From positions 108,036 through 172,035 of the forward strand of contig JBGARZ010000020.1 in assembly GCA_044229975.1 (NCBI GenBank): a DNA stretch of 64,000 nucleotides, in the 5' to 3' direction. Below, piece by piece: positions 30,942 through 58,422 of this stretch. The stretch comes from Polyangiales bacterium. GTDB lineage: Bacteria > Myxococcota_A > Polyangia > Polyangiales > Ga0077539. Numbering within the stretch: position 1 is the stretch's first letter; each line of letters starts with the position of its first letter. Made by a program: the position numbers and the translations under genes. The notes beneath the pieces were generated by a model, which saw only the letters and a list, made by a program, of their open reading frames with translations, did not search any database and was not told the origin of the DNA.

Positions 30942-31091
30942 GTCGATCGTCTCCCAGCGTCGCCCGTCGGTGTTGTGAGGGCGCGAATTGTCGTCGGTCG
31001 GGCCCACGCGAGCCCGCGCGAAGGCGACGGAAACTACCCGAGCCGGGCGTCGGCTGACAAGCGACGGGCGGAAGAGGGCGCGAGAAAGTCG

Positions 31092-31120
31092 TTGACAGGT
31101 TGAGACAAGGCGGGCATACA
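31092..31120 (+). promoter_or_regulatory. Putative sigma70 promoter of tRNA-Leu
   Basis: TTGACA at 31092, 17-bp spacer, weak -10 CATACA, shortly upstream of the tRNA. Confidence 0.5.
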
Positions 31121-31133
31121 CCGCGTCCCCGTC

Positions 31134-31215
31134 GCGAGGATGGCGGAATTGGCAGACGCACTAGCTTGAGGTGCTAGCGAGTAACATCGTGGGGGTTCAA
31201 GTCCCCCTCCTCGCA
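31134..31215 (+). tRNA. tRNA-Leu (anticodon GAG); CCA not encoded
   Basis: Acceptor GCGAGGA/TCCTCGC plus discriminator A, D loop GGAATTGGCAGAC, anticodon arm CTAGC-TTGAGGT-GCTAG, long variable arm, T arm GGGGG-TTCAAGT-CCCCC. Confidence 0.97.
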
Positions 31216-31220
31216 CTCTA

Positions 31221-31255
31221 GAAGGCCTCGAAACTCCAAAGGTTTCGGGGCCTTC
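31221..31255 (+). terminator. Hairpin after the tRNA, possibly bidirectional
   Basis: GAAGGCCTCGAAAC / GTTTCGGGGCCTTC 14-bp stem (one G-U), followed by a T-rich tract. Confidence 0.7.
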
Positions 31256-31263
31256 GTCATTTT

Positions 31264-31288
31264 GTTCACCCAAACGGTTCACCCAAAC
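31264..31288 (+). repeat. Direct repeat GTTCACCCAAAC x2, putative integrase arm-type sites
   Basis: Exact 12-mers at 31264 and 31277 near the tRNA end, overlapping the integrase stop. Confidence 0.6.
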
Positions 31289-32591
31289 CTCTGGGCAGGG
31301 GCAGCCGGAACCGCCTCGGGATGAGCTTGAGCTTCCGCATCTCGGCGCACTGCCGCTCCCAGCTCGGGACCGCGTACAGGTGCCGGGCGGTCTGGCTCGA
31401 CGGGGCGTGCGTCCACCGGGCGGCGACGTTCTCCTCCATGCCGGCGTCCGCGCAGAGCGACGCGAGGGTGTGACGGAGGTCATGGATGCGGTGACCCTTG
31501 ATCCCGCACGCCTCCAGGTCGCGCTGGAGGGCGTCCCACACCGCCTGCTGCCAGAGGGGGCCGCCAGCGCCCACGCGCGTCCCGCGCCGTCGCCCTGTTC
31601 CCGCGCGCACGGGCACGAGGAAGTCGGTGGGCGTCGGCGCGGCCCCGTACTCGGCCAGCCACCCCTCGCCCGCCCACCAGTCGAGCACCACGCGCAGGAG
31701 CGGGTGCTCGGGGACCTCGCGGCAGTTCTCCGTCTTCAACGGCGTGACCTCCCGCGTCCGGTGGTGGATCTGGCGGGCGATGGACACGCGCCGGAGCAGC
31801 GGCGTCTCTTCGTCGAGCAGGTCACACCATCGGAGCGCGACGGACTCGGACACACGCGCGCCGGTGAGCAGCAACAAGAACCACATCACCATCCAGCGCG
31901 GTTCGATCGACGGCTCGCCGAGCAACACCTCCACATCGCAGCGCGGCATCCGATAGTCGCGGCGAGCGATGGGGTCCGCGTCGATTGCCTGCGGGCGGAT
32001 GTCGCTCGGGAGCACGGCCGTCGGGTCCTGCACGAGCAGCTTGTGGAACACAGCGCCACGGAGGGCGCGCGCCACGGGGTCGAGGGTGTTGCGGACGGTG
32101 CGCGGCGCGGGTGCGCTCTTGGCGCGTGCCGTCTTGCGCCCGCGCACCAGTTCGAGCCACCGCGCGATGTGCTGCGGGTCCACCTTCGCCACGGACAACG
32201 TTCCGAGGCTCCACCCGTCGGGCGCGGCCAGGGCGAGCGCCGCAACGGTGCGACGACGGTCCTTCGCGGCCTCGGGGTAGGTCTGCTTCGAGAGCCAGTC
32301 GTCGCACCAGCTCGCGACGGTCATCTCTGCCGAAGGCGGCGGAGCAACGGGTTCGCGTGCATCGGGTGCCCAGCTCCCTTCGTCGTACCGCTCCTGGAGG
32401 CGGTGGGCGTACCGCTTCGCGTAGCCCTCGTCGGCGCGCGTGGTGCCGGTGACCGGCTCACCCTCGCGGGTGACCGGATGCTCCAGGCGGGGCGACCGAC
32501 GATCAAGCCCCTTGGGCTCGCGGGAGAGAGTGATGCGCGCGTACCACCGGCCCTTACGGTGGACGGCGCTGCCAGTGCGTGGGCGGGCCAT
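31266..32591 (-). CDS. Tyrosine recombinase/integrase
   Basis: TGARVSE (R), PLKT (K), HDLRH, WTH, HLY catalytic pattern; N-terminal arm-binding-like GRWYARI. Confidence 0.92.
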   Translation of the reverse strand: MARPRTGSAVHRKGRWYARITLSREPKGLDRRSPRLEHPVTREGEPVTGTTRADEGYAKRYAHRLQERYDEGSWAPDAREPVAPPPSAEMTVASWCDDWLSKQTYPEAAKDRRRTVAALALAAPDGWSLGTLSVAKVDPQHIARWLELVRGRKTARAKSAPAPRTVRNTLDPVARALRGAVFHKLLVQDPTAVLPSDIRPQAIDADPIARRDYRMPRCDVEVLLGEPSIEPRWMVMWFLLLLTGARVSESVALRWCDLLDEETPLLRRVSIARQIHHRTREVTPLKTENCREVPEHPLLRVVLDWWAGEGWLAEYGAAPTPTDFLVPVRAGTGRRRGTRVGAGGPLWQQAVWDALQRDLEACGIKGHRIHDLRHTLASLCADAGMEENVAARWTHAPSSQTARHLYAVPSWERQCAEMRKLKLIPRRFRLPLPRGLGEPFG

Positions 32592-32602
32592 CGGGCGGCA
32601 CC

Positions 32603-32938
32603 TTAGCGGACGGAACGGCCAGACGCCGGTCGGTTGTCGATCTCTTCGTCGAGGTCCAGTTGATTGGCGGCACGCGCGCGGCGGACTCCGACGGTGGGCA
32701 TGCGCTCGACCGCAGCGTCAACCGCAGCGGGCTCGACCCAAGTGTCACGGTGGTTGTCCTCGCGAAGGGAGACCGCTCGGGCAAGACACCACGCGCGAAA
32801 GGCACGGGTCGAACTGAAGCCACGACGGCTCGCCTCCGCCTCGATCCGTCGCCAGCGCGGAGCCTCCTGTAGCGGTGCCAGATCCCTGATGATGATGGCC
32901 ACCGCGTCGCGTAGCGGGTCAGCCACGGTCGCCTTCAA
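32603..32938 (-). CDS. Small basic protein, possible excisionase/HTH
   Basis: Immediately upstream of the integrase; EASRRGFSSTRAFRAWC...TWVEPAAVDA resembles MerR-like xis folds. Confidence 0.45.
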   Translation of the reverse strand: MKATVADPLRDAVAIIIRDLAPLQEAPRWRRIEAEASRRGFSSTRAFRAWCLARAVSLREDNHRDTWVEPAAVDAAVERMPTVGVRRARAANQLDLDEEIDNRPASGRSVR

Positions 32939-33100
32939 CGGGTGATCGGTCGCGGATCACAGAAGCCGCTGCGTCACTCGCGAACATGGAGGGCAGAGCA
33001 CCACGAGGCCCTCCTTGGATGGCTCGCGGTTCCTTGGCGCGGCTTGCTTGAAATGGGGTCACGAGACCTTTACGCCCTCAGCGCGGGTGGGCCAGACGAT

Positions 33101-36100
33101 TTACGACGCGAGGGTGACCGCGACGGGAGAGGTGGCGTCGAGGACCGCTTCCAATTGCGCCATGGCCTCATCGGTCAGGTCAGAGAATGCCTTCGGTCGT
33201 CCCTCACGATCGGGGTGAAGAATGTGTTGTGTCCGATGTTCCGACCACCGGAGGGCATGGTCGGCCTGGGCTCCAGCCACGTAGAACCGTCGTTGCCCAC
33301 CGACCTTCGACTCCCGAAGCTCGACTCCGAAATGCTCCAGTGTGACCCGCACCAACCGGATCTGATCCCGATCGATGTCTGCCCGGACGACGATTCCCAA
33401 GGTCTCCAAGATCCGACGGTGGCGCTTGGCGTATGCGGCCACGCGGCCATCCGTGTGAACTTCCGTCGCGGCCCCCCATATTGTCGGGTCACGCGGGAGA
33501 CCTGCCGCATTGAGGATGTCCCCCCATGCGACGCAGTGAAGGTAGGAGAAGCTCGCGTGCGACGCGGGCACCCCTTGGCTCCGTTCTCGCCGGTCCATAG
33601 CCTTGACCGCGTCGGGATCGGTCACGAAGGCCCGGTACTTTGCGAACGCCCGCACCCGCGACGCGAGCTTGGTGTCTGCCACCTCGTTGACGGTCACACC
33701 AGGACCCAACAACTCCCGTGCTCGGTATTTCCGAATGGCGTCGGCGTCCTCCGGCGAGAGGTCGGTGCCGTCCAGCGCGTCGGCCTCGGTGTGCATCAGA
33801 TCACGGGCGGACCAGATCCGACGGGCCTCGGCCTCGCGTACCCGTGCCGCGGTGTCCTTGTGGAACTTCGTGACCTCTCGGCGTTGGCTCTGATCCAGGA
33901 CGCCCGAGGCCTCCAGCGTGGCGGCGTCCTCGGTCTCGGTAACGCCCGCTCCCTGACCTCGCAGATACGCCAGCAGCGCCCATCGACGGTCGCCGCCCGG
34001 GCCGCCGGTGCGACGCTCATAGGACAACACTTCCGCGTAGAGCCGGTTGTGGTCCGTACGCCAAGGATCACGGACGGCTGCCCCGTCGTGATAGACGATC
34101 TCGTCCACCACATGCTGTTGCACCGTGACCACCCCATCGGGGGAAAGCACGCGAACCGTCGTGTCCCCGGCGGCCAACAGCCCGTCGTAGATCCGCTGGG
34201 GGTCCGTCTCACGGGTCCCGCGTTGGCCTGGGGGGCAGTGAATCCGCACTTCGGTCGAACGAGGATGACGGACGCGGTGAGCTGCCTGGAGAAGGTCGTG
34301 GACGGTGCCGACGCCCTCGGCGGAGTAGACGTAGATCTGGTCGTAGTGGTCACGAACCGTGATGCTGAATCCCGAGCCCAACGTGGCCGTGTAGATGAGG
34401 GCGTCGTACGGGATCAACGGGTCGTTGAGGAACGCCTTGACCCTCGGGTCGGCGCGGACGGTCGTCGAGTTGATGAGCAACACGGAGGCTTCGGGGCGAA
34501 CCCGGAGGAGTTCATCCCGGAGCCACCCGACATCCATCGGCGGATCTTTCAGTTGCGTGCCCTTCACCGTGCTCTGGCGTTTCGACTGGCAATGAACGAC
34601 GAGGCGCTTCCCCGCGGCCCAATCGAGAAGAAGATCCCGGTCGGTCAAGGCCCGTACGGAGTCCACCCGATACGTGAACATCGGGATCGCAGGCAAGCAT
34701 CGCAATTCTTGATCGCGAGCGTCGTCGGGGTCGATTCCGAGAAGCTCCCGTGCAAGGCGGAAGGACCACGGATCGAGGTCGGCGTCCGCGATCACCACCT
34801 GTTCTGCGTTCTCGCAGAGACCTCGCAGTTGCCGGTGAACAGCCTCCGACTGAGGTCCTGAGAGCGTGGCACTGAAAAGGTGTCTGAGCGCCTGGGTGAA
34901 CTCGTCCAACACCACGAGGGCCGGGCGGATCGGCACCACGGTCCCGTCGGGTGTGGTGGTGCATGAGACGATCCGAAGCACCGAGTCCAGGCAGACGGCG
35001 AGGTCGCCCTCGACCCGGCGGGGTACACCGGGGTCCAGATAGCAGATCACCTGAAACCTCTGTGCCGCCTGCTGGGCGATGGTCTGGCGGTGGCTGATCA
35101 CCAGCACCGAGCCGGTGGCTCCCGAGGCACGGACCGCGTCGATGGCCCTTCGAATGACCTCGGTCTTCCCGGTGCCCTTGTCCGCGTGGAACCCGGTGAG
35201 GCGTGCCCGCAGTGGCTCGTACGGCAGATACCGACCCTCCACGAGCTCGTCGGCCCGATACACCCGCAGTCCCCCGACGGCTTCGAGGTCCCGCATGAGG
35301 GAGTTCCGAGAGGTGTTTTCGACGCCCGAGGGGGGGGTCGCACAATGGTCTCTTCTATTATTGTTGACACCATTTGTGCGACCCCCCCTAACTCCTTTGA
35401 GTGACACAGCATTTTCGGCTTCCGCCGCTTCTGTGCGCCCCCCCTTGGTCGCCGCCGCCGAGGGGCACCTCGAAGATCCCGGTGGCCGTCTCTCGAATCC
35501 CTCTGGGAACCCGTCGCGGTGCCAGAAACTCGTGTTGAGCTTCCACGACCGAAGCCACACGCGGCCATCGGCGTCGTGCCGAAGGACGCACGAACTCCCA
35601 TCGAGGTAGGTTTCGCCAGCCCGGCGCGGTTCCACTTGCCACGGGTTGCCGATGGGGCTGAACTCCGACCCCACAGGCACGTTCCCACGGGTCCACGTCA
35701 GGAGGTCAACGCCCGCCGTCGGGTGGAGCACCTGCGAGAAGTCCACGGTCACGTTCGCCCAAGAAGCAGCGCCGCTCCCCTTGCCCGTCGTGGTGTCCCG
35801 GACCTTCGACGCCCGTCGCATCTTCGCAGCGATGTCGCCGGGCACGGGCAGCGACGGCCATCGGGCCCGGTGAGACGGCTTGTCCACGGCCATGACCGTC
35901 TCTGCTTCGGACAGAATCGGCGCGAGGTCGAGGAGGGTGTCCGCAGCCTCGCCGCACCCACGAGCAGGCGGAACCCCGCCCCAATCACCTTCGCCCGCGA
36001 TTCGGGATGCGGGGTGCGACGGCAGGTAGAAGAGCCGCCCGTCCATCGCACGGGAGTCACAGGAGGGTTCCCCTGGTTTCACGGAGTCGAGGGGCAGACC

Positions 36101-36682
36101 CGCATCGATCAACTTCCGCCGCCCCCACCACCACGCCCGACAGGCGTCCTCGAAGGTAGTCGGTGCGGCGAGCAAGAGCACCACTCGAACGGATGCGTAC
36201 CCGTCTTTGCACGACCACGTCGTCCAAACCAGACGGCGGAGGCCGATGAAGGCCCTGTTGATGATATCCGACACGTCCTGGACAGAGAGCCCAACTGCGT
36301 CGAGATCGAAGGGGAGCATCACCCAGAGAGCCTGCTGGCATGAGACACCCCGTTTGGCACCGTTCGGGAGGCGATATGGTAGAACGCCCCGGGCGCACTC
36401 CTTCATCTTCAGGGGGTTCTTCTTCGTATGGGCTTTGTCTGCCCATGTGAACCTGTCCTTCTTGTTCGCGATAGCCTGTGGGAACAGAAGGGCTCGTACC
36501 GAGAGCCCCCAACCCTGCGGGGAAACGTCGATCACGACGTGATCCACTCGCCGCGGACACTCCATTCTTGGTGCGATATCGAGGACGACTTCGACGGCTT
36601 CGTTCGCATTGGAAGGACTATCGTTTGTGGTATTGTGAGTTGTCACGTCGTTGGTCCTTGCGAGCCCCGCCCTTGTCGCCAA
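33101..36682 (-). CDS. Replication protein: primase-polymerase-like N-terminus plus UL9/CyRepA1-type SF2 helicase
   Basis: FDLD...WTTWS...VRVVLLL...RLFYLP (AEP-like); HADKGTGKT, VISHRQTIA, VLDEF, ADADL, IYTATLGSGFSI, QAAHRVR (SF2). Start uncertain. Confidence 0.75.
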   Translation of the reverse strand: MATRAGLARTNDVTTHNTTNDSPSNANEAVEVVLDIAPRMECPRRVDHVVIDVSPQGWGLSVRALLFPQAIANKKDRFTWADKAHTKKNPLKMKECARGVLPYRLPNGAKRGVSCQQALWVMLPFDLDAVGLSVQDVSDIINRAFIGLRRLVWTTWSCKDGYASVRVVLLLAAPTTFEDACRAWWWGRRKLIDAGLPLDSVKPGEPSCDSRAMDGRLFYLPSHPASRIAGEGDWGGVPPARGCGEAADTLLDLAPILSEAETVMAVDKPSHRARWPSLPVPGDIAAKMRRASKVRDTTTGKGSGAASWANVTVDFSQVLHPTAGVDLLTWTRGNVPVGSEFSPIGNPWQVEPRRAGETYLDGSSCVLRHDADGRVWLRSWKLNTSFWHRDGFPEGFERRPPGSSRCPSAAATKGGRTEAAEAENAVSLKGVRGGRTNGVNNNRRDHCATPPSGVENTSRNSLMRDLEAVGGLRVYRADELVEGRYLPYEPLRARLTGFHADKGTGKTEVIRRAIDAVRASGATGSVLVISHRQTIAQQAAQRFQVICYLDPGVPRRVEGDLAVCLDSVLRIVSCTTTPDGTVVPIRPALVVLDEFTQALRHLFSATLSGPQSEAVHRQLRGLCENAEQVVIADADLDPWSFRLARELLGIDPDDARDQELRCLPAIPMFTYRVDSVRALTDRDLLLDWAAGKRLVVHCQSKRQSTVKGTQLKDPPMDVGWLRDELLRVRPEASVLLINSTTVRADPRVKAFLNDPLIPYDALIYTATLGSGFSITVRDHYDQIYVYSAEGVGTVHDLLQAAHRVRHPRSTEVRIHCPPGQRGTRETDPQRIYDGLLAAGDTTVRVLSPDGVVTVQQHVVDEIVYHDGAAVRDPWRTDHNRLYAEVLSYERRTGGPGGDRRWALLAYLRGQGAGVTETEDAATLEASGVLDQSQRREVTKFHKDTAARVREAEARRIWSARDLMHTEADALDGTDLSPEDADAIRKYRARELLGPGVTVNEVADTKLASRVRAFAKYRAFVTDPDAVKAMDRRERSQGVPASHASFSYLHCVAWGDILNAAGLPRDPTIWGAATEVHTDGRVAAYAKRHRRILETLGIVVRADIDRDQIRLVRVTLEHFGVELRESKVGGQRRFYVAGAQADHALRWSEHRTQHILHPDREGRPKAFSDLTDEAMAQLEAVLDATSPVAVTLAS
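35331..35445. other. Candidate replication origin inside the rep gene
   Basis: Perfect 15-bp inverted repeat (35331-35345 / 35374-35388) around a 28-bp AT-rich spacer; third degenerate box at 35432-35445. Confidence 0.55.
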
Positions 36683-36777
36683 ACAAGGGGGCGGGGCATC
36701 GCCTTTTGGGGGTTATGGGTTCATCTGGATGAGCGTTCGGTTGTCCGCGAGAGGGCACCGCCACCGCGCCACACGCC

Positions 36778-36996
36778 TCATGGCGTCCCCTCGATGAGCC
36801 TCTCGACCGCGAGCACATCCACCCTCACGGCCCGACCCAGACGGAGCGGGGCGATGCCCAGCCGACGAAGGGTTCTCTCGACCGTTCGCGGGCTGCACTT
36901 CCACCTCGCGGATGCCTGCTCGACCGTCATCCACAGGCGGTCGGTGTTCGGGGCCTGGGAGGGGGACGAGGGGGGTGTCGGGACGGGTGTGGTCAT
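36778..36996 (-). CDS. HTH_17/excisionase-like DNA-binding protein
   Basis: WMTVEQASARWKCSPRTVER...LRLGRAVRV; RBS GGAGG before ATG 36996. Confidence 0.75.
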   Translation of the reverse strand: MTTPVPTPPSSPSQAPNTDRLWMTVEQASARWKCSPRTVERTLRRLGIAPLRLGRAVRVDVLAVERLIEGTP

Positions 36997-37493
36997 CGGC
37001 TTGCTCCTCCAAGGGCGCGCCGATAGGCCAAGTACCGAGGGGACGGCCCCGGACGGCGCGCGGTGCCGTGCGTTCGTCGCGGGTGCGTCGGGTGAAGGGG
37101 AGTCGGTGCGGGTCATGAACCCTTTACGCACTCGACGTGGGGGGACGGTCGAATTCGTCCTCCATCTGAACCGACATCGACTCGGTGGTCTTGAAACGTG
37201 ATTTCGTCCCGCCGGGACTACTCGGGGGACGTCGGGGGGACGACAGACGCCCTGGGGGCATCAGGCAAAAGGGGGGTTTGCAGGGGTTTAGTGACCTTTT
37301 CGAGGTGGCTCCCCCCGGTTCATAAGAACCGCAAAGATAAGTTCCGACCCCCCCGGTCCTACCCCCAAAAGGCTCTATCGATCCGGCAAGGATTTTCTGA
37401 GGGCCTTGGCTTCAATGGGGTTCGGCCTGCCTTCACCGCAGCCTGCCCCGCGCCCGGCCTCGGGGAGGTTCCGTGGGAATCGGCAGGGCGGCA

Positions 37494-37559
37494 GTCGATC
37501 TCGCTAAACACCGCCCCGCGAGAGTTGTGAGGAGGTGGGAGGGGAACGGCTCGCTGACC
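37494..37559 (+). promoter_or_regulatory. Conserved motif copy 1: TCGCTAAACACC-N8-AGAGTTG...GGGGAACGG
   Basis: Three copies with identical spacing; this copy is upstream of the AAA ATPase. Confidence 0.65.
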
Positions 37560-37609
37560 CATTGTGGGCAGGAGTGTCGTCGCCTCATCCCCACCGAAAA
37601 CAACGACCT

Positions 37610-38752
37610 ATGACCACGACCCTCACATCCAACGGCACGCTCGGCCCCACCCTCGACGCGACCAACCTCGCCACCGTGCTGGGCCACGTCCTTGAGGCGA
37701 ACGCCCTGGCGACCGCCTACTGTGAGCTCCCGACGCCCGTGTGCATCTGGGGCCCGCACGGCATCGGCAAGACCGCCCTCGTGAGGGAGCTCGCTCGCAC
37801 CCGGGGTTGGGGCTTCGTCGTCGTAGCACCGGCACAGATCGAGGAGCTCGGGGACCTCCATGGTCTGCCCACGCGCATCGACGGCGGGACCGGCGAAGCC
37901 AAGGACGGGCGCACGGGCTTCCTGCCGCCCACCTGGGTCCCGACCCAGAAGGGCCCCGGCATCCTCCTGTTGGACGATTTGAACCGCGGGGACGTTCGCG
38001 TGTTGTCCGCCCTCATGCAGCTCCTCCAGACGCACCGCCTGTACTCCTGGTCGTTGCCTCCCGGATGGCAGATCGTCTGCACCGCGAACCCGGACAGCGG
38101 GTCGTACGCCGTGACGCCGATGGACGACGCGATGCTCACCCGGATGGTGCACTTCACGATGACCTTCGACGCGAGGGTCTGGGCGCGGTGGGCCCACGAC
38201 GCCGGGATCGACCCCCGCTGCATCGAGTTCGTGACGACGTACCCCGAGGCTGTTCTTGGTCGGCGTACGACGCCCCGCACGCTGGTGCAGTTGTTCCGCC
38301 TCGTCGCCCCGATCCGCGACTTCAACAGCGCCCGCGAGCTCGTCTCCAGGCTCGCGCATTCGACCCTCGACGTTGGTACCGCGGCGTCGTTCGTGAGCTT
38401 TGTCTGTGTCGAACAACACCAGCTCGCCACCGCCAAGGACATCCTCGACGCCGCCACCCCTGCGGACGCGCGCAAGCACATCATCAACGCCGCGACCGAC
38501 CACACTCAGGGAGGGCGGCTTCGCATCGACCGTGTGGGGCTGGTGATCGCTCGCATCGAAGAGGTGATCGAGGCCGACGACTACACCCCCGGCCCCCGGC
38601 ACCCGGCCAATCTCTCGGCCCTACTCGCGAGCGCGGAGGTGCCGCGGGACATGGCGATGCGCCTGCACCGCGCCCTCGCACGACGGGGCCTCGGGCATCT
38701 CGTGCGAGACCGCGCCGTTGCGAAGCGCCTCCTCAACGAGGGGGCGTCGTGA
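37610..38752 (+). CDS. AAA+ ATPase (MoxR-related, partner of DUF2201-VWA)
   Basis: CIWGPHGIGKT, PPTW, ILLLDDLNRGD, IVCTANP, MDDAMLTR, TPRT. Confidence 0.85.
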   Translation: MTTTLTSNGTLGPTLDATNLATVLGHVLEANALATAYCELPTPVCIWGPHGIGKTALVRELARTRGWGFVVVAPAQIEELGDLHGLPTRIDGGTGEAKDGRTGFLPPTWVPTQKGPGILLLDDLNRGDVRVLSALMQLLQTHRLYSWSLPPGWQIVCTANPDSGSYAVTPMDDAMLTRMVHFTMTFDARVWARWAHDAGIDPRCIEFVTTYPEAVLGRRTTPRTLVQLFRLVAPIRDFNSARELVSRLAHSTLDVGTAASFVSFVCVEQHQLATAKDILDAATPADARKHIINAATDHTQGGRLRIDRVGLVIARIEEVIEADDYTPGPRHPANLSALLASAEVPRDMAMRLHRALARRGLGHLVRDRAVAKRLLNEGAS

Positions 38753-39963
38753 TGGTGGCCCGTGAGCCCGTCACCATCACCGACGATGAGTGCTGCGAGC
38801 TCCTCGCGACCGCGTCGTGGGACCTCGGCCGCAAGCTCCCCTTCTACGGGCACGTCCTCGCCGCGTTCGACCGCGTCGTTGGTGTCTCCGTTCCCACCGC
38901 CGCCGTGGGTGCGGGTCACGAAGGGCAGCCCACGCTCTTCCTCAACCCAACGTTCTTCGGGGCCACGCTGCGACGCGACGAGCACCGCATCGCGGTCCTC
39001 GAACACGAGGTCCTTCACGTGGTCTGCGGCCACTTGCGGTTGAACACCGCCGAGATGCCCGACGCCCGGCGAAGGGCCATCTCGATGGACATCGTGGTCA
39101 ACCAGTACGTTTCGCACCCGCTCCCACGCGGCGCGGTCACCCTCGCGGCGTTCAAGGACTTCCCCGCCGGGCTCACCGTCGAGAGCTACTACCGCCTGTT
39201 GTCCAAGATCCCCGACGAGGAGCTCGCGAGGTTCGGGCGGGACCTTTCCCGCGGGCACAACCGCTGGAGCGACCCTCAAACAGACGAGAGCGGGCAACGG
39301 CTCGTGGACACGCTCGACGAGATCGTCACCGAGGCCCTGCGTCGGGCTGAACGCGATGGGAGCTTCGACTCCCTCGCCAAGCCGCTGCGGCTGTCGCTCT
39401 TGCGGGGTCGTCTCTCTCCCGTGGGTGCCACCGACTGGCGGCGTGCCCTGCGGCTCTTCAGTGCCCGCGCCCTCCGTGCTGGTGTGCGCGCCACCAACCA
39501 ACGGGAGTCCCGCCGCTACGGAGCCTCCACGGGCGACTGGCGGGGTCCAATCGTGCCGGGCCTCCGTCGCGGTCGCAGACCCTCCTTGGCGGTGGCCATC
39601 GACACGTCGGGTTCGATCCCGATCGACACTGTCGGGAGGTTCTACGAGGAGGTCGGGCGCATCGTCGCCGCCGGAGCCACCGTCCACATCATCGAGTGCG
39701 ACCTCGCGGTGCAGCGCACCTACCCGTGGACAGGGGTGCCGCCCACGCACTCCACGGGCGGCGGTGGGACGAACTTCGACCCCGTCTTCCGGTGGCTCAT
39801 CAACGAGGGCCGCCGGTTGAACCTCTCGGGCTGCGTGTACCTCACCGACGGTCACGCCCCGCGCCCTCTTGTACGCCCGCCGGTCCCGGTGCTCTGGGCG
39901 GTCACCGCCAACGGGACGAACGCCAACACGGCCTTCGGGCCGAGCATCTCCCTGCCCGCGTAG
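38752..39963 (+). CDS. DUF2201-type metallopeptidase (HEXXH) plus VWA domain protein
   Basis: VLEHEVLHVV, MDIVVNQ, AVAIDTSGSI, GGGGTNFDPVF, YLTDG; TGATG overlap with the ATPase. Confidence 0.85.
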   Translation: MVAREPVTITDDECCELLATASWDLGRKLPFYGHVLAAFDRVVGVSVPTAAVGAGHEGQPTLFLNPTFFGATLRRDEHRIAVLEHEVLHVVCGHLRLNTAEMPDARRRAISMDIVVNQYVSHPLPRGAVTLAAFKDFPAGLTVESYYRLLSKIPDEELARFGRDLSRGHNRWSDPQTDESGQRLVDTLDEIVTEALRRAERDGSFDSLAKPLRLSLLRGRLSPVGATDWRRALRLFSARALRAGVRATNQRESRRYGASTGDWRGPIVPGLRRGRRPSLAVAIDTSGSIPIDTVGRFYEEVGRIVAAGATVHIIECDLAVQRTYPWTGVPPTHSTGGGGTNFDPVFRWLINEGRRLNLSGCVYLTDGHAPRPLVRPPVPVLWAVTANGTNANTAFGPSISLPA

Positions 39964-39966
39964 TTT

Positions 39967-40025
39967 TCGCTAAACACCCCCCTCGCAGAGTTGTTAGGGG
40001 TTGGAAGGGGAACGGTTCAGACCGA
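39967..40025 (+). promoter_or_regulatory. Conserved motif copy 2
   Basis: TCGCTAAACACC-CCCCTCGC-AGAGTTG-TTAGGGGTTGGAAGGGGAACGG. Confidence 0.65.
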
Positions 40026-40093
40026 CGCGGGCACCGGGTGGTGCTCGTCGTCGCGACGACCATCCCGCGCCCGCCATGGTCGAACGCTCGCGT

Positions 40094-40157
40094 GTCGATC
40101 TCGCTAAACACCCACATCCCAGAGTTGATAGGGGGGAAGGGGGACGGAACGCTGACC
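40094..40157 (+). promoter_or_regulatory. Conserved motif copy 3
   Basis: GTCGATC-TCGCTAAACACC-CACATCCC-AGAGTTG-ATAGGGGGGAAGGGGGACGG, upstream of the DUF932-like gene. Confidence 0.65.
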
Positions 40158-40286
40158 GATACGACGCACGGGCGGTCGTCACGGAGAGCCCCGCAACACC
40201 CGCTTCGAGAACCCCCGACCATTCACCGAGAGCACGCGCCCTTGCGCTCTCTCACCCCTCTCTATTCACCGAAAGGAACCGTCTCC

Positions 40287-41366
40287 ATGAACCACGCCGT
40301 CGTCCCCGCCAACATCACCACGCTCGCCCGAACGTCCATCGCCGCCAACACCTCCTCGCCGCCGCCTACCCGGATGCTCAAGGGCCGCTCGTTCGCCAAC
40401 GTGTTCGAGTCCGTGATGACTCGCGCTGGCGAGATGGTCCCCGACCGTGTCGTCCACGTCGCCGACCTGCGTATGACGCCCGAGGGCCACGTCGAGCTCC
40501 CCGGCGGCACGCGCTACCGCCTCAACGACTGGGCTCGCAAGGGCCTCGCCTCGATGCTCGGTCTCCGCTGGGAGACGTGGTTCAAGTCGGCCTCGGGTGA
40601 GGAGCGCGCCGAGGAGGTCAACCGCCGCTTCAGCAGGATTCCGGGCGAGAAGAAGATCCGTGCGTGGCGCGACGACGACGGTGTGGCCGATGGCATCGCC
40701 AGGGCCTTCCTCGCCCCGGGCTTCACGCCCATCGACGACGCCCGGATCTTCGAGCGCATGAACACCATGCTCAAGGGGCTCGTCAGCGAGTACGTGTGGA
40801 CCGCCACGGAGTTCACCGACTCGACGAGCAACTTCACGGCGGTCCACACCGAGGCGTTCGACCTGGACGGCGACCGGCTGCACCCCGGGTTCCATCTCAG
40901 GAACTCAGAGGTGGGTGGGGCGGCGCTGTCCCTCGATGACTACGCCATGAGGCTCGTCTGCATGAACGGGCTCATGGTGCGGGTCGGCGGCAAGCGCTCC
41001 CTCTACCGCACGCACCGCAGCATCGAGGACGACCAGCTCGCGGCTGCCCTCGTGATTGCCGTGGGTCGCCTTCCCCAGCGGTGGCAGGTCTCCTTGGAGT
41101 GGATGCGCGCTGCCAAGGGCCTCGCCGTCGCCCACCCCGACGACGCGGTGGCCGCGATCCTCGGTGATTCCACCGAGGTGCCGAAGGCCCTCATCGAAGA
41201 GGCGCAGCGCGTGGTGCTCCGCGACGGGGATGCGACGCGCTTCGGCGTCGTGCAGGCCATCACACTCACGGCGCATCAGTCGAACCGTAACCCCGACGTG
41301 CGGTTCGCCATGGAGCGCCTCGCGGGCGACTACCTCGCGGCCACGCCCGTCCTCACGGCAGCGTGA
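40287..41366 (+). CDS. DUF932-like phage/plasmid protein
   Basis: RAFL...FTPIDD, GFHLRNSEVG, RLVCMNGL; RBS AAAGGA. Confidence 0.7.
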   Translation: MNHAVVPANITTLARTSIAANTSSPPPTRMLKGRSFANVFESVMTRAGEMVPDRVVHVADLRMTPEGHVELPGGTRYRLNDWARKGLASMLGLRWETWFKSASGEERAEEVNRRFSRIPGEKKIRAWRDDDGVADGIARAFLAPGFTPIDDARIFERMNTMLKGLVSEYVWTATEFTDSTSNFTAVHTEAFDLDGDRLHPGFHLRNSEVGGAALSLDDYAMRLVCMNGLMVRVGGKRSLYRTHRSIEDDQLAAALVIAVGRLPQRWQVSLEWMRAAKGLAVAHPDDAVAAILGDSTEVPKALIEEAQRVVLRDGDATRFGVVQAITLTAHQSNRNPDVRFAMERLAGDYLAATPVLTAA

Positions 41367-42235
41367 CCACGCACCCGGTCGGGCCCCTCATGGACATCAT
41401 CCATGAGGGGCTCGCGGGACCCCCATCGAGGACCGCCGTGATCCTCCCCGACAACTACTCCGTCCGCGGCGCTCGTGGGCGCTTCGATCCGCAGGCGTGG
41501 ATCCGCCATCTCGCGGACCATCCCGCCGACGTTGCTCACCAGATCGAGCTCCTATCCCTCCTCGACGACGAGGTGGTTGAGACCCTGCTGGCCGGCGTGG
41601 ATGTCGGCCCGAGGTACCCGGTGAGGGCGTCGGGCTCGTCCCTGCGTTGGGTGCTTCCGCGGGTGTTCCGTCGGCCCCGTCCGGTGACTGTGCTCGACGT
41701 GAGGTTCTCGACGCACCTCGCGGCCGTACTTGGTCTCGCGGCGTGGGGCGAAGGGCCCGCTGCACGGCGAGTCCGGTCGGGACTCCGCGAGTTGCACCTC
41801 CCGCAGCGGGCTCAGTGGTGGCTGAACGACAGCCTGGAGAGCTTGAACAACCTCGTGCAGTTCACCGCGCCCGGTACCCTTTGGCACCCGGCCGCGACGT
41901 TGCCGCGACGGTTCTTCGTGATGCCGAAGATGAACGAGCTCGACCTCAACGGGGCGGGGCTTGGTGACTTCCGAGTCGCAACCACCGAGTGGAACCTCCC
42001 CGTCGTGACGCGCCTCTCCCTCTCGGGCAACAGCCTCACGAGGGTGCCTGACGCGGTGCTGCGGCTCGACACCCTGGAGGTCCTGAACCTCATGTGCAAC
42101 CCCATGAGGGAGGTGCCCGAGGCCCTCGCGGCCCTCCCGAGGCTGCGCTACCTCGACCTGCGGCAAACCGGCGTCATGTCGCTCCCGGCAGCCTTCGCCG
42201 CCCGCCCCGGACTCCATGTCCAGCGCGGGGACTGA
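41363..42235 (+). CDS. Leucine-rich repeat protein
   Basis: LSLSGNSLTRVP, LEVLNLMCNPMREVP, LRYLDLRQTGVMSLP; GTGA overlap with the DUF932-like gene. Confidence 0.75.
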   Translation: MTTHPVGPLMDIIHEGLAGPPSRTAVILPDNYSVRGARGRFDPQAWIRHLADHPADVAHQIELLSLLDDEVVETLLAGVDVGPRYPVRASGSSLRWVLPRVFRRPRPVTVLDVRFSTHLAAVLGLAAWGEGPAARRVRSGLRELHLPQRAQWWLNDSLESLNNLVQFTAPGTLWHPAATLPRRFFVMPKMNELDLNGAGLGDFRVATTEWNLPVVTRLSLSGNSLTRVPDAVLRLDTLEVLNLMCNPMREVPEALAALPRLRYLDLRQTGVMSLPAAFAARPGLHVQRGD

Positions 42236-42379
42236 CGCCCCCAGACACACGCTCCGACTCGGGTGCCCCGCCACCACGAGTCCGTCCCGATCACGAACGC
42301 CAACCACCTGGGCGGGTCGCCGTCCTTCACGACGGCGCAGCCGCCGCTCCATGTCCGAACGAAATGAGACACGTCCGTC

Positions 42380-42937
42380 ATGAACAACAAGCCACTCTCA
42401 TCTGTTCCGTTCCCGAACTCCACCCCGGAAGGGAGGTTCTCCCTCGACGACTCCGACGTGCTGCCCATCAAGTACGCCGGGCACGCGGTGGTGGGCGTCC
42501 TGGTGGGGTGCCGTCCTCAGTGGGTCTCTGTCGCCGTGCGAGACGGGACGTGTGGCGGGTACCACCTCGCACCCCGGCAACCGCGCGACCGCCGCGGCAT
42601 GATGGTCGCCCTCGCGGGCCACGTCGCCCTGTCGATCTACGCCGAGAGGGCAGTCATGGCTGCGGACCTCGCCACATGGGCCGAGGTCACCGACCTCGCC
42701 AGCTTCGCAGACCTGTTCACCCCGGAGGTGCGTGACGACGATCGACAGTTTCGCGACCTCTACGAGCGCCTCTGCGCCGAAGTCCGGGAATTGCTCCTGG
42801 CGCACTGGGCGAGCGTCCTCGTCCTCGCCACCGAGCTCGCAGACTGCGGGCGACTCGAAGGCCCCGAGCTCACCCGGATCGTGCGGGGGGTCACGTCCGC
42901 CCGCCGTCGTCCCGAACTGACGACGCCCGCCGGATGA
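42380..42937 (+). CDS. Stand-alone M41/FtsH-peptidase-like protein with degenerate Zn motif (paralog A)
   Basis: IKYAGHAVVG in place of HEAGHA; MVALAG; VRELLLAHWASVLVLATEL..CGRLEGPEL like the FtsH C-terminus. Confidence 0.6.
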   Translation: MNNKPLSSVPFPNSTPEGRFSLDDSDVLPIKYAGHAVVGVLVGCRPQWVSVAVRDGTCGGYHLAPRQPRDRRGMMVALAGHVALSIYAERAVMAADLATWAEVTDLASFADLFTPEVRDDDRQFRDLYERLCAEVRELLLAHWASVLVLATELADCGRLEGPELTRIVRGVTSARRRPELTTPAG

Positions 42938-43078
42938 AGCGTCTCCAGTGCCCTTCCCACCCACACCAACGAGTCGCCCTCAACCACCCATGACCATCAA
43001 CACTCCCGTTCGATCCCTCTGTTGCGCCTTCGAAACGGCCCTGAAGCCACTCTCTTCAGGAATCCAGGAGCCCCGATC

Positions 43079-44317
43079 ATGACCACCCATCAAGCCTCCC
43101 CCGTCCCGTCGTCCATCCCGACTGAGATCGACGTGAAGATCGACGACCTCAAGTTCGACCCCAAGCTCCAGACGCGGGCGAAGCCCCACGACCGGCAGTA
43201 CGTCATGGGCCTCTGCGAGGTGATCCGGGAGCGAGGGTTCCAGGATTCCATCGTGGTCTTCCGTGATCCCACCGACGGGAGCCAATGGGTGGCGGACGGC
43301 CACGCCCGGGCGGATGCCGCGAGGTCGGCCGGATGCGCCACGATCCGGGCCCGCGTCCACGAAGGTGGACTTCGAGAGGCCTTCGAGTTCGCCCTGGGAG
43401 CCAACGCCACGCACGGTGTCCGCCGGACCAACGCGGACCTTCGCCACACGGTACTGACGGCTCTCGCAGACCCCGGTACGAAGACGTACACGAACGAGAA
43501 GATCGCTGATCTGTGTCACTGCTCCGACCACTACGTCGGCGTTCTCCGCAACAAGCTGGCGGCGACGAGTGGCAACCCGGCGGAAGCTCGCCGCACGGGC
43601 AAGGATGGGAAGTCCTACCCGGCGAGGCGTCCCCGCAAGGCGGCAGTGCCGACCAGATCGAAACCGGCCAGAAGTTCCTCGGTCGCGGTGTCCCCTCCGC
43701 AGACCAGGACCGACTCGCTCGCATCGACGGACGGGGCAGCGGGGTCCAGCATCGCCATCACCAAGGGAGTGCCCACGGAGGCGAGCCACGATGGTCTGAG
43801 CGCCGAGGTGACGACGCCGACCAACTCGACGCACGTCATCCACGAGGTCGTCGGGGTCATCCCGGTTGAGCCGCCCGCGGCCCTCCTGGGAGAAGGCCCC
43901 CACGTGGTCGCCACCCCGAGTGAGGGTGAGCCCACGGCGATGCCGACCGACGCCACGGTGGTCTCCACCCCGGAGGACGTGATCCCGTCCATCACGATTC
44001 CCTCGGCGCTGGGCGAGGACGAGGAAGCTCTGTTGGGACAGCTCCTCAGCATCTGCGCGAAGATTCACGCCCGTCGCCAGCGCCAACCGGAGGTGACCGT
44101 CCGGGAGGACCTCGTTCGGGCGGCCCGCGAGAAGGTCGCGCGATGCCTGGACGAGTGCTACCCGGATACGCGGGACACCGTTCACGGGAAGCTCACCAAC
44201 GCCCCGGCCCGGTTCTACGAGATGATGGGTTACAACCCCCGTCCCGGTCACGGGAGTGACGAGGCAATTCTGGGCGTGCTCTCGGCGGAGATCGACCAGG
44301 AGCGCCTGACCACCTGA
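43079..44317 (+). CDS. ParB/Srx-like N-terminal domain plus HTH and low-complexity tail
   Basis: LQTR, IVVF, WVADGHAR, ANATHG.RRT.AD, NEKIADLCHCSDHYV; RBS AGGAG. Confidence 0.75.
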   Translation: MTTHQASPVPSSIPTEIDVKIDDLKFDPKLQTRAKPHDRQYVMGLCEVIRERGFQDSIVVFRDPTDGSQWVADGHARADAARSAGCATIRARVHEGGLREAFEFALGANATHGVRRTNADLRHTVLTALADPGTKTYTNEKIADLCHCSDHYVGVLRNKLAATSGNPAEARRTGKDGKSYPARRPRKAAVPTRSKPARSSSVAVSPPQTRTDSLASTDGAAGSSIAITKGVPTEASHDGLSAEVTTPTNSTHVIHEVVGVIPVEPPAALLGEGPHVVATPSEGEPTAMPTDATVVSTPEDVIPSITIPSALGEDEEALLGQLLSICAKIHARRQRQPEVTVREDLVRAAREKVARCLDECYPDTRDTVHGKLTNAPARFYEMMGYNPRPGHGSDEAILGVLSAEIDQERLTT

Positions 44318-44594
44318 CCGCAGGTAGATGCGCGCCTGACCCACTACGGGGCTCCTCGGTGTTGACCGAGGAGCCCCGGCCCGTCGTCCTCGCTGCGAGG
44401 GCGGGGCCGGGGAGCGCCGTGGTCGTCCGCGACCGTCCAGTACCTCAACGAGGACGGGGACACGGGTGAGCGCCGAGGGGCCAACGACGCGGAGAACCGG
44501 AGGGTGATGGTCGCGAGAAAAAATCTCGGGAGGGGGCTCATGCGGGCGTAACGCGCAGTGCAGGACACCAGACCCCCTGCAGAAGGTAAAGCAA

Positions 44595-45455
44595 ATGACG
44601 ACCAACGACGCTATCTCGAATCCGGTCTCGGCCACGCTCCCTGTGCCGGAGGTACCCTCGCTCCTTCTCTTCCGTTCCACACTGGCAATCAAGATGGCCG
44701 GACACGCGGTGGTCGGAGAGGCCATGGGCCGTCGCCCGAGGTCGGTGTGGTTGAATCCCCGTGACGGGATGTACGGAATTTACCGCATCGATAGGCCCAA
44801 AGCGGACGCTGAACTCAGCGCGATGGTCGCCCTCGGTGGGTACGCCGCCCTGAGCATCGCGGATCTGATGGACGAGCCCACGTCCAAGGGCTTCAGGGAG
44901 TCTGCTCTGTGCACCGACGCACACCACGCCTCCATGTACTTTCCCACGGAGGAGAACAACCGCCCTGCACTGGCGCTGCGGCTCCTCCCCTTCGTTCACG
45001 ACTTGCTGCTTCGGCGATGGAACAGGGTGAAGATCGTCGCCGCGTACCTCGATGAACACGGAATGATCGACGGTCCGACCCTGGGACGTCTCGTCTCTGC
45101 GGCCGACAACATCGAAGTGCCGGGCCCTCAGATCGAGGATGCTCAAGTGTTTCCGATCGCCAGTCCCGCGGTCCCCATGAAGGCCGTCGATGCGCATGAG
45201 AGTGCCGTGGTCCGAGACGCAGAGAGCACGCAGGTCAACCCCGCCAAGCCCCAACGGATCGCAAGCGAGTACGATGTGGATCTCCTCCGTGAGGTTCTCG
45301 AAGGCATCGCATCCAAGGAGGTGTCCGTCGAGGAAGCGGTGGCCTTCCTGAAGCCCACGCCGATGCAAGAGATCGCCCTTCGTTCTTTCGCCCGTGAGGG
45401 TTCCACCCTCGCCAAGGCCCTCGACGCCTTCACCTACACCCCGTCGCAGAAGTAG
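44595..45455 (+). CDS. Stand-alone M41/FtsH-peptidase-like protein with degenerate Zn motif (paralog B)
   Basis: IKMAGHAVVG, MVALGG.AALSI, VHDLLLRRWNRV..VAAYL.EHGMIDGPTL; extra C-terminal VLEGIASKEVSVEEA segment. Confidence 0.6.
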   Translation: MTTNDAISNPVSATLPVPEVPSLLLFRSTLAIKMAGHAVVGEAMGRRPRSVWLNPRDGMYGIYRIDRPKADAELSAMVALGGYAALSIADLMDEPTSKGFRESALCTDAHHASMYFPTEENNRPALALRLLPFVHDLLLRRWNRVKIVAAYLDEHGMIDGPTLGRLVSAADNIEVPGPQIEDAQVFPIASPAVPMKAVDAHESAVVRDAESTQVNPAKPQRIASEYDVDLLREVLEGIASKEVSVEEAVAFLKPTPMQEIALRSFAREGSTLAKALDAFTYTPSQK

Positions 45456-45898
45456 GCCCGAGCCTCCTCCGTCGTTCCCACGAACACGGAGAGATCGAGC
45501 GACGGCCCTCCACTCGACTCCACCTATTCGACTGTCTCGTTCCGGGGCCGGTGTGGCCGTACTCACCGCGGCTCTGGACCGCCCCGGACCGCTATCCGGT
45601 GCTCCTCCTCGACGGCCCCAACCAGGCCAAGCGGTCTACCCACCCGGTGCTCTACGACGCCATGAAGTTGTTGCGACGCTGGCGCTGGAAGGTGGTGGGG
45701 CAGTGGCTCGTCGGGACTCGTACGGGAACGTGATCATGACAGCCAGCGCGGCGTCGGACTGCCGTTCCCCGCCGACGTGGCCCGCATTCTGGACACCTGT
45801 TCGCTCAGCACATCGTGACCGGCTGAGGTCTCGGGTCCCTCGTTGGCTGGATGCAGCCCGGAGCGGACCGCGACCACCCCAGGTCGGGGAGGGTGTCG

Positions 45899-46453
45899 CT
45901 ACAGCCCCTTCAGAAACGATCTGAAGGTCAGGGCAACGCCCGTTGGGAGCGCCGAGACAGTTCCAATCCCAGGAGCCGAGGAAGTTCCAGTCCCAGGGAT
46001 CTGCCCTGTCGGAACCAGTTGGCGCTCTGGAACGGCTTGCCCCTCTCGGATAAGCGCTTCGACGAACCCCTCCAATTCAGGGTCCACGTCCAAGGCGAAC
46101 CGTAGTTCATGCTCAGCAACGTGCGGGAACCAGGACACCCCGAACTTCTTCCGAAGACTTCCCCCGACTTGGGCAGCACGCTCGATCTGCCCACCATGTT
46201 GAAGGTAGAGCGCCGCGACAAACGCAACAACTCGCCGCTGTTCCTCCTCACTCTTCCGGATGCACAACTGACAGGCCTTTTCGATAGCCTTCTGCTGTGA
46301 GTCGAGATTGACTCGGCCTTTTAGCACTTGCTGGCGATCGCTCCAGGCTTGCCAGCCGCTCTGAATCCTATTCGCTGCCCCTTGAACCATATTGGGGTGC
46401 TTGAGGGCGTAGTCCATTACCTTCACGGCGATAGAAACGAGGTCGGCCACCAT
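45899..46453 (-). CDS. Hypothetical protein (lower GC)
   Basis: RBS AAGGA before ATG 46453; no recognised motif. Confidence 0.5.
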   Translation of the reverse strand: MVADLVSIAVKVMDYALKHPNMVQGAANRIQSGWQAWSDRQQVLKGRVNLDSQQKAIEKACQLCIRKSEEEQRRVVAFVAALYLQHGGQIERAAQVGGSLRKKFGVSWFPHVAEHELRFALDVDPELEGFVEALIREGQAVPERQLVPTGQIPGTGTSSAPGIGTVSALPTGVALTFRSFLKGL

Positions 46454-47119
46454 GGTCCTTCGTACCAACCTCTTCTCCGCGCCGCAAGAGCCCGTCCGCA
46501 GGTCGGAGAAGCCACGAGGTCGTCCGCTGACGGGTGGGGAGTCGCACTGGGATGGGACCATGCTCGCCTCGGGTTGAACCACGGCGACCTCGCGCGAGGT
46601 TCGATCGGATCGGACCTGCCACGACAGGGCCTTCTGGCCCGACCCTCAGCAGCCTCGTGACCAGCAAGGGCGTTCGCCTCCCGGATCACCCGCTGGTCGC
46701 CCCCCACACGCCGACCCTGACCGCGCCGCCGAGCTCCTCGACCGGGTCCTGGTCGTGCGCGTCGGGCGGGTCGCCGCTCAGGGTCGAACCGTTTGAGCCT
46801 GCCGCCCTACGAGTTGCCCCTCGCGCCGTCCTCACCGACACGCGAGCCTACACCGCCGACGACGCCTACACCGACGGCCTCGGTGCTCGACCTCGAAGGG
46901 CTCCCGCGGGCCTCACCGCGGCGTCCCGCGGGGCGTGTAGGGGCGGCGACGGCCTCACGGCCGAGAGGTCTCGGGGAACGCCCTGGCGGGGCCAGGGAGG
47001 CCCGCCTGGGGCGGTAGGAATCCTCGGACTCCACTTGGGGCCCTCCGTTCGTTGGGCGTCGGTTGCCGTGGCCACCAGTTGTTCCCTACGATCAGGCACG
47101 GAACGAAGGAGAGGTCGAG

Positions 47120-47308
47120 ATGAACGGAACCGAGTACGGGCACTGCGCCAAGGGCGGCCACACGAAGGACCCCGACCAGAACTACGTGTGCGGCAAACAC
47201 CTCAGCCCCGAGGTCCCCAGTCTCTACACCCACTGCGCCAAGTGCGGCATCAGCTTGGATGAGGAGTCACGCCGTTACGTGTGCGATGCGTGCCTCGTCC
47301 CACGATAG
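47120..47308 (+). CDS. 62-aa Cys/His-rich micro-protein with duplicated Zn-ribbon-like unit
   Basis: Strong RBS AAGGAGAGG; HCAKGGH...YVCGKHL / HCAKCG...YVCDACL. Confidence 0.6.
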   Translation: MNGTEYGHCAKGGHTKDPDQNYVCGKHLSPEVPSLYTHCAKCGISLDEESRRYVCDACLVPR

Positions 47309-47339
47309 TAGCCGCCCGTCCCTCCAGGAACGCCCCGGC

Positions 47340-48104
47340 ATGATCCAGCCCTTCGCCCAAAACACGCTCGACCGGCTCTGGGCGACCTACACTCCCGCGG
47401 ACACCACGAAGGGCTCGCTCCTCCAACCCGAGTACCTCCTCGCGGCCGAGGGGCCGTACAAGGTGTACTTCGCCCCGCTCGGTGTCGTCCCGGAGGCGAC
47501 CGCCCGCGTAGTCCTCCTGGGCCTGACCCCAGGCCTCGCCCAGACCCAACTCGCAGCCAAGACCTTCCTCAACGCCTCCCCTGAGGTGCGGGCCGACACG
47601 ATCGAGTTCGGACGACGGCTCCGTCGGGAGGTGGCGTTCGGGGGGTCGATGCGTGACCTCCTGTGCAGGATGCTGGACGAGATTGACCTCCCCAGGTTGC
47701 TTGGCCTCTCGCGGAGCCAAGAGATCTTCGCGGCTGACGGGGACGACGTCGCCACGACTTCCGCGTTGGTCTACCCAGTATTCACCGGCCCGACGCTGAA
47801 GAATTTCGGCGGCTCTGCCGACCTCGCCCGCGTGGAGCTGTTCCGCGAGATGCTGACGACACTCCTGGCCCCGCGGCTGGCCGCCGCCCCGCGGGCGCTG
47901 ATCATCCCGTTCGGGAAGGCCGCAAGCACCGGGGTGCGCTTCCTGGTTGAGCAGAACGCCGTGGACGAAGCGCAGGTGCTCTGGGAGTTCCCGCACCCCT
48001 CGGGGGCCAACGGCCACCGTGTCCGGCAGTTCGCCCAGGCCAAGGCGGGGCTCCGCAGCCGCGCCGTTGCGTGGGCGATGGCATCGTGGCCGAAGGGCCG
48101 GTAG
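47340..48104 (+). CDS. Uracil-DNA glycosylase superfamily protein
   Basis: VVLLGLTPG (motif A), IIPFGK, FPHPSGANGHR (motif B). Confidence 0.7.
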   Translation: MIQPFAQNTLDRLWATYTPADTTKGSLLQPEYLLAAEGPYKVYFAPLGVVPEATARVVLLGLTPGLAQTQLAAKTFLNASPEVRADTIEFGRRLRREVAFGGSMRDLLCRMLDEIDLPRLLGLSRSQEIFAADGDDVATTSALVYPVFTGPTLKNFGGSADLARVELFREMLTTLLAPRLAAAPRALIIPFGKAASTGVRFLVEQNAVDEAQVLWEFPHPSGANGHRVRQFAQAKAGLRSRAVAWAMASWPKGR

Positions 48105-55044: not shown

Positions 55045-55047
55045 CCC

Positions 55048-58422
<3,375 letters not shown>

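Follow-up and report, generated by a model that had tools for sequence, protein, structure and literature searches.

A predicted replication origin in the primase-helicase linker of a UL9-like replicase gene on a tRNA-integrated island

We analyzed a 64,000-nucleotide stretch of DNA from a Polyangiales bacterium (assembly GCA_044229975.1, contig JBGARZ010000020.1, positions 108,036 to 172,035; “the window” below), part of which is an island integrated at a tRNA gene. The island carries a replicase gene, rep, and within this gene lies an inverted repeat that flanks an A/T-rich spacer. We predict that this repeat is most likely the Rep-bound replication origin of the island. The evidence for this assignment is the sequence of the site, how rare it is, the fact that homologs share it, and the resemblance of the Rep fold to that of a herpesvirus initiator. 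The layout is found again in many distant relatives of rep, including those of N15 and the cyanobacterial plasmids, which makes the repeat a likely origin, with a build similar to that of the herpesvirus origin.

The components of the site are listed in Table 1. The original prediction had described perfect 15-bp inverted arms at 35331-35345 and 35374-35388 around a spacer unusually rich in A/T for this DNA; all of its coordinates were right, and the spacer proved to be the least stable of the 32,754 30-mers that the island contributes to the window. Pairing of the arms continues inward to form a stem of ~22 bp with one bulge, one mismatch and a 13-nt loop (z = -5.3 for the DNA fold, 0 of 200 shuffles as good). 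To score such sites we added twice the arm score to the log-odds of spacer A/T richness, for spacers of 20-35 nt. The window repeat scored 36.6, a value that none of 1000 synonymous-codon shuffles of rep equaled (null mean 13.6, maximum 28.2). Genome-wide, 75 inverted repeats had a score of 14 or more and a spacer of 20-35 nt, and in three of these the spacer was at least 55% A/T. The repeat with its A/T spacer is therefore not a product of chance. The box was found at this single locus, with no second copy elsewhere in the genome.

Table 1. Features of the rep region and the island end (positions in the window).
Feature	Position	Strand	Basis or remark
rep gene: primase-like domain, linker, UL9-type superfamily 2 (SF2) helicase, C-terminal domain	33101..36682	-	open reading frame (ORF), NF042913 profile, structure model
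N-terminal domain, likely divergent archaeo-eukaryotic primase (AEP)	35513..36595	-	invariant D126, D128, D209; S-2L PrimPol profile match
Predicted disordered linker, amino acids 391-459	35306..35512	-	predicted local distance difference test (pLDDT) <50; all three boxes within
SF2 helicase and C-terminal region	33203..35305	-	aligns to residues 28-834 of the origin-binding protein (OBP) of herpes simplex virus 1 (HSV-1)
Arm 1 (putative Rep box)	35331..35345	.	GGGGGGGTCGCACAA; exact reverse complement of 35374..35388
Spacer, putative unwinding element	35346..35373	.	28 nt, 18 A/T (64%), coding strand rich in A
Arm 2 of the inverted repeat	35374..35388	.	15 bp, perfect pairing with arm 1
Third box	35432..35445	.	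TGTGCGCCCCCCCT; repeats arm 2 directly, at a distance of 57 bp
Direct repeats of CCCCCCGG upstream, flanking an A/T-rich 25-mer	37308..37358	.	contains partial box CGACCCCCCC at 37345
tRNA-Leu(GAG), integration site	31134..31216	+	3' part and ~55 bp repeated at contig C37:1798-1875
Tyrosine integrase	31266..32591	-	PF00589 above cut-off
Small ORF, located between integrase and rep; resembles an excisionase in position only	32603..32938	-	no Pfam or NCBIfam match

A degenerate third box and a partial box upstream of rep had also been reported. Both are present, and the first is now seen to repeat the neighboring arm directly. The upstream box is suggestive only, because the 10-Mb genome holds 20 copies of its 10-mer (~0.07 per 35 kb), and the direct repeats that contain it are a possible operator or promoter. 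Two other identities for the inverted repeat were rejected. A Rho-independent terminator would not have a loop of 13-28 nt with no T run after it, and the single match of a terminator scan at the repeat was a different, G-T-rich pairing with four GC pairs. An in-frame miniature mobile palindrome would be expected in multiple genomic copies, and a single locus was seen. An Rfam scan of 31000-48000 matched the tRNA and nothing else.

The repeat encodes amino acids 432-451 of Rep, 2287 nt 5' of the rep stop codon. GC content at third codon positions drops to 0.40 over amino acids 421-450, the lowest value among 30-codon blocks of the gene. Contigs from runs X1 and X3, which come from two studies, carry a second allele: a C is added in arm 2, T is replaced by C at 35402 and C by A at 35438, and the base at 35439 is lost. 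In run X2 the C-to-A change is also present, near a contig end. The two indels (+1/-1) keep the frame and replace 19 linker residues. In the X1/X3 allele the repeat is lengthened to 17-bp arms (arm 1 from 35329), and the third box becomes an exact copy of the 12-mer of the arm. Since 19 residues are rewritten while the repeat lengthens and the third box is perfected, the constraint lies on the DNA. Whichever allele is correct, the sequences indicate that the boxes hold while the peptide is free.

Counted from the first possible start codon, Rep has 1193 amino acids; the database call has 1072. The AlphaFold model (mean pLDDT 75.8) falls below 50 at amino acids 391-459, a segment that includes the peptide encoded by the repeat, and the site thus sits between the primase-like and helicase parts, as originally proposed. 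The description of the protein as UL9-like was borne out over the helicase and C-terminal region: the best Foldseek match of Rep was HSV-1 OBP in complex with oriS (E = 3e-17, as against 1e-8 for the entry ranked next), and profile comparison showed clear homology of the helicase to OBP (E = 1e-25). By structural alignment, residues 451-1160 of the model were placed on OBP residues 28-834 (Z = 18.2, 531 aligned residues, root-mean-square deviation 14.8), and it is only within this whole-model alignment, with its deviation of 14.8, that the C-terminal region is covered. Amino acids 494-1123 scored 187.1 bits on NF042913 (CyRepA1), below the curated cut-off of 200. The family profile of the N-terminal domain matched S-2L PrimPol (E = 2.5e-5), the residues D126, D128 and D209 form an invariant DxD...D triad, and the top fold matches of the domain model were nearly all AEPs, RepB' included. 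An AEP primase is therefore the likely assignment, which is not proven because none of the fold matches reached E ≤ 0.001. No match to DUF3854 was found at the Rep N-terminus at E ≤ 0.1.

A tblastn search with Rep retrieved cyanobacterial plasmid Reps and the RepA proteins of N15, VP882 and phiHAP-1. Close relatives were few. A single-protein search gave five other proteins, with none in 300 other genomes of the class and none in viral contigs, and locus scans with an alignment of the closest homologs gave four metagenome loci, three viral loci and no genome locus. Two further observations concern the gene itself. The primase-like family of Rep is also found fused to other C-terminal parts, and at 36657-36711 a 9-bp inverted repeat with a 16-nt spacer overlaps the first possible start codon.

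HSV-1 OBP, the UL9 protein, is thus the best structural and profile match of Rep. Excerpts of PMC12543377 describe two OBP dimers that bind inverted boxes and destabilize the A/T spacer, and give an oriS oligonucleotide with TCGCAC and GTGCGA cores (33 nt apart by hand count). The window repeat has identical cores 32 nt apart, a striking match, although the TCGCAC...GTGCGA pattern has four occurrences in the genome and the likeness to oriS was noticed post hoc. In both sites an A/T spacer lies between two inverted boxes, and a third box is present. In HSV, however, Box 3 is inverted next to Box 1 and forms the oriS* hairpin, whereas the third box of the window is a direct repeat 57 bp away. 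In addition, oriS sits in the repeats flanking the unique short region (US), outside UL9, while the window repeat is inside rep. OBP itself has no fused primase and shares 15-17% identity with Rep.

To assess recurrence, we assembled rep homologs from 172 loci, 149 of which had a rep ORF; two further loci were included, clustering at 70% identity left 85, and 13 annotated records completed the set. Each gene with 120 nt of downstream DNA was compared to 40 synonymous shuffles, and a gene passed when no more than one shuffle was as good (p ≤ 0.049). With the window excluded, 25 of the 94 genes with a complete 3' end passed. When one gene was taken per 50% cluster, an inverted repeat with an A/T-rich spacer of 20-35 nt was significant in 21 of 57 clusters, as compared to 1 of 57 neighboring ORFs (which are shorter, mean 1.17 kb) and 3 of 60 long host ORFs. 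Among the 21 passing clusters, 17 had the site in the last 500 nt of the gene or just past the stop codon; over all 57 clusters, 31 had their best site either within the final 500 nt of the gene or up to 120 nt beyond its stop codon (11.7 expected). The passes of L038, L066, L142 and L173 are probably terminators or chance. In 20 further regions, 17 of them belonging to the same phylum and some retrieved for a second time, the threshold of ≤1/60 was passed by 10.

The original prediction had looked to rep homologs for a palindrome at this same position. Linker-located repeats do occur in L004 (=L201; 0 of 60 shuffles as good) and L217 (1 of 60), but in most homologs the repeat is near the 3' end. 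It is in the C-terminal part of rep in L007, L008, L125, L204 and L205, and upstream of the gene in L033. CAC was the commonest paired trimer in the arms of the family (12 of 26), with gaps mostly of 29-43 nt; an orientation bias of CAC in these arms was not significant (11 vs 4, p = 0.12). Some linkers deserve mention in their own right. In L004 (G472) the peptide encoded by the linker repeat recurs in degenerate form ~130 residues earlier, which suggests a second origin-like copy. The linkers of P0037, P0038 and P0013, known as proteins alone, read by eye like a translated inverted repeat around a Lys/Asn-rich patch.

Origins inside initiator genes have precedents, of which the lambdoid one had been cited. 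The lambda origin indeed lies inside gene O, beside an A/T-rich tract, but it consists of four direct iterons, and O is a non-enzymatic initiator not known to be related to Rep. A closer precedent is repA of the telomere phage-plasmids N15 and PY54, the product of which is homologous to Rep (tblastn E ~1e-4 for N15 and 5e-11 for VP882) and likewise combines a primase with a UL9-type SF2 helicase. The best-scoring site in repA of N15, PY54, phiKO2 and VP882 was a repeat 237-320 nt before the stop codon (at -278 in PY54 and -297 in N15), with a spacer of 25-27 nt and ~70% A/T in N15, PY54 and VP882. The VP882 repeat passed alone (0 of 40 shuffles as good). In PY54, the origin reportedly occupies 212 bp within the 3' part of repA (work by Ziegelin from 2005). 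According to part of PMC2847241, N15 replication starts within repA. These repeats are consistent with co-location with the known origin, judged by their positions, rather than a demonstration of it. The island also differs from this type, in which the repeat lies near the 3' end of repA rather than in the primase-helicase linker and the elements are linear plasmid prophages rather than tRNA-integrated islands. The primase of N15-type Reps is of the DnaG/Toprim type (DnaG-type in excerpts of PMC4889955), whereas that of the island Rep is likely an AEP by its fold matches and DxD...D triad.

The Reps of the cyanobacterial plasmids, CyRepA1 and CyRepA2 (Slr7037 of pSYSA, ORF B of pCC5.2), share the helicase and C-terminal region with the window protein (187 bits on NF042913, below the 200-bit cut-off) but have a DUF3854/Toprim-related primase. 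We ran an expectation-maximization motif search on the DNA that follows the last conserved domain in 33 genes of cyanobacterial type (14 clusters). The motif caCACCCC-N3-TA(A/T)(A/T)AA was found in 25 of the 33, with a log-likelihood of 109 as compared to 58-61 in four shuffles; two unconstrained searches returned protein-coded motifs only, and the DNA motif appeared only with domain anchoring. It spans or follows the stop codon in 11 of the 25 genes and lies 30-31 nt before the rep stop in pSYSA and pCC5.2. Trained without the window, it ranked the window repeat first on the coding strand of the window's rep (score 4.0) and the L004 repeat first of 3781. Functional replicon fragments of these plasmids include the whole rep gene. 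In excerpts of PMC9978351, the upstream ssr7036/asRNA1 locus of pSYSA alone hardly replicated while a fragment to the end of slr7037 did, and in excerpts of PMC6066503, ORF B of pCC5.2 with 257 bp upstream and 69 bp downstream was sufficient for replication. The authors favor RNA-primed and rolling-circle models, with an upstream RNA-based or a rolling-circle origin rather than this site. The replicon data fit an origin at the 3' end but do not single it out. In the open-access literature, supplements excluded, we found no description of this origin layout in CyRepA or AEP-UL9 Reps.

Several observations weigh against an origin at the repeat. The spacer range and A/T weight were picked after inspecting the data, 36 of the 57 clusters were not significant, and one of the long host genes used as controls reached 36.3, on a level with the window repeat. 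None of N15 (3 of 40 shuffles as good), PY54 (2 of 40) and phiKO2 (12 of 40) passed alone, and pSYSA (36 of 40), pUH24 (37 of 40) and many other cyanobacterial genes failed. The motif score of 4.0 at the window is modest, A/T richness helps it, and several other island sites score higher. The linker segment is an insertion relative to the closest homologous proteins, the best-matching viral contig (L037) has no linker, and the family test was run without DNA of the closest full-length homologs P0007, P0008 and P0010. The contigs of the X1/X3 allele have a depth of 3.4-3.7, and the homopolymers of the window assembly may hold errors of their own. Finally, no attP/attB joint of a circle or an empty site was found among the joints listed, in contigs that were short, low-depth and uninformative.

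One alternative is that the repeat acts as a single-strand hairpin, either a primase initiation signal or a cruciform, and not as duplex boxes around a melting element. Hairpin-type primase signals are known from RepB'/ssiA and pRN1. The long inward stem described above would suit such a role, as would the resemblance of the N-terminal domain to AEP primases including RepB'. Moreover, L207 (G864, same genus) shares the primase-like domain only and has a hairpin with 23-bp arms at amino acid 682 of a 916-amino-acid ORF (0 of 60 shuffles as good). In most homologs, however, the 20-35-nt spacer is not self-complementary, and many cyanobacterial sites consist of one half-box and an A/T tract with a weak second arm. 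We consider the hairpin improbable; it would be a replication signal all the same.

A second possibility is that the repeat controls rep expression, as an operator inside the gene or as an antisense promoter. The spacer contains a perfect TTGACA on the + strand (35364-35369), and antisense RNA takes part in CyRepA1 control in excerpts of PMC9978351. However, a promoter scan found none at the repeat, and in homologs the site frequently spans the stop codon or lies beyond it, which would suit an operator poorly. This explanation is very improbable. It could also be speculated that the repeat is neutral, a quasi-palindrome or a miniature in-frame insertion that a floppy linker can tolerate, in keeping with the insertion relative to the closest proteins and with the equally high-scoring host gene. 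This we find highly doubtful, as the genome has no second copy, the layout is enriched in rep homologs, and the allele in other samples is more symmetric, not less. A partition centromere for the island's ParB-N protein is hardly credible: centromere sites do lie inside repA of N15 (excerpts of PMC2847241) and phiKO2, and the island encodes a weak ParB-N match (43022-44317), but the annotated phiKO2 site is 18 bp near the repA 5' end and separate from the 3' repeat, the genome has no further copies of the box, and recurrence tracks rep genes.

If the repeat is the origin, replication may proceed as follows, by analogy with OBP. The integrase would excise the island as a circle, and Rep would bind both inverted boxes through its UL9-like C-terminal region. 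With 32 bp (about three turns) between the TCGCAC and GTGCGA cores, both boxes would face the same side of the helix. Rep would then bend and melt the spacer, the SF2 helicase would extend the bubble, and the AEP domain would provide the host polymerase with primers for synthesis; the third box may be an auxiliary Rep binding site. Binding, melting, priming, excision and replication are all steps that we infer. Across the family, the origin would occupy stretches of rep that tolerate arbitrary sequence (the 3' tail, C-terminal insertions or the linker), and origin and initiator would therefore move as one gene.

The site resembles both the N15/PY54 intragenic origin and oriS, and differs from each in its likely AEP primase, its linker position and the geometry of its third box. 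What is new relative to known intragenic origins is the linker position, the likely AEP primase, the integrative host and the predicted origin motif of CyRepA plasmids. The data provide a precise, testable candidate origin for an AEP-UL9 replicase that occurs on integrative islands and has not been studied, and another for cyanobacterial CyRepA plasmids, which serve as shuttle vectors. They also suggest bacterial counterparts of the herpesvirus initiator and origin layout that are genetically easy to dissect, and a clean case in which an overlapping DNA signal dictates the sequence of a protein linker.

A broader reading is that a single ancestral origin design is common to herpesvirus UL9 and the bacterial UL9-family Reps (N15 RepA, CyRepA1/2 and the island Reps with a fused AEP), and that the bacterial origin is a cassette that moves from place to place within the rep gene to which it belongs. 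The design would comprise inverted CAC-core boxes about three helical turns apart, an A/T tract between them and a homologous C-terminal domain that reads them; the cassette would sit in the 3' tail, a C-terminal insertion, the primase-helicase linker or upstream. We put this forward tentatively, as a proposal that, taken as a whole, falls somewhat short of an even chance. If true, the origins of pSYSA and pCC5.2 would lie ~30 nt before the rep stop, and herpesvirus oriS would be a relative of a phage/plasmid replicon.

On the 3' side of rep, the gene order is small ORF, tyrosine integrase and tRNA-Leu. The copy of the tRNA 3' end on C37 marks the predicted other end of the island, which is therefore at least ~35 kb long. 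A Pfam scan of 19 ORFs identified cargo proteins of the AAA+/VWA, DUF932, ParB-N, SNF2-DUF1156-DUF499 and GmrSD types; no virion or conjugation family turned up among these ORFs. The genes at 48528-61255, encoding an SNF2 helicase, a DUF1156 methylase, a HEPN-DUF499 ATPase and a GmrSD-N protein (NCBIfam scores below cut-offs), are likely an anti-phage cargo cluster. Upstream of cargo genes there is a 59-nt element in three copies (37494-37552, 39960-40018 and 40094-40152; 66-78% identical), with no copies elsewhere in the genome and no Rfam match; these elements may be promoters, sites of recombination or small RNAs.

Upstream of the rep region, a short inverted repeat at 37369-37407 encloses the 11-mer GATCCGGCAAG, which also occurs in a similar repeat upstream of rep in L041 (L041:1225-1265) and once in pUH24 without a repeat. 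The rep homologs of L212 and L213, from the same phylum, have a tRNA-Leu gene no more than a few kb away, which suggests related integrated elements. Very long intergenic-type palindromes with shared sequence are found at 11389-11612 of the window, where the perfect arms are 86 bp, and at G000 C27:83250-83450; they are probably members of a host repeat family.
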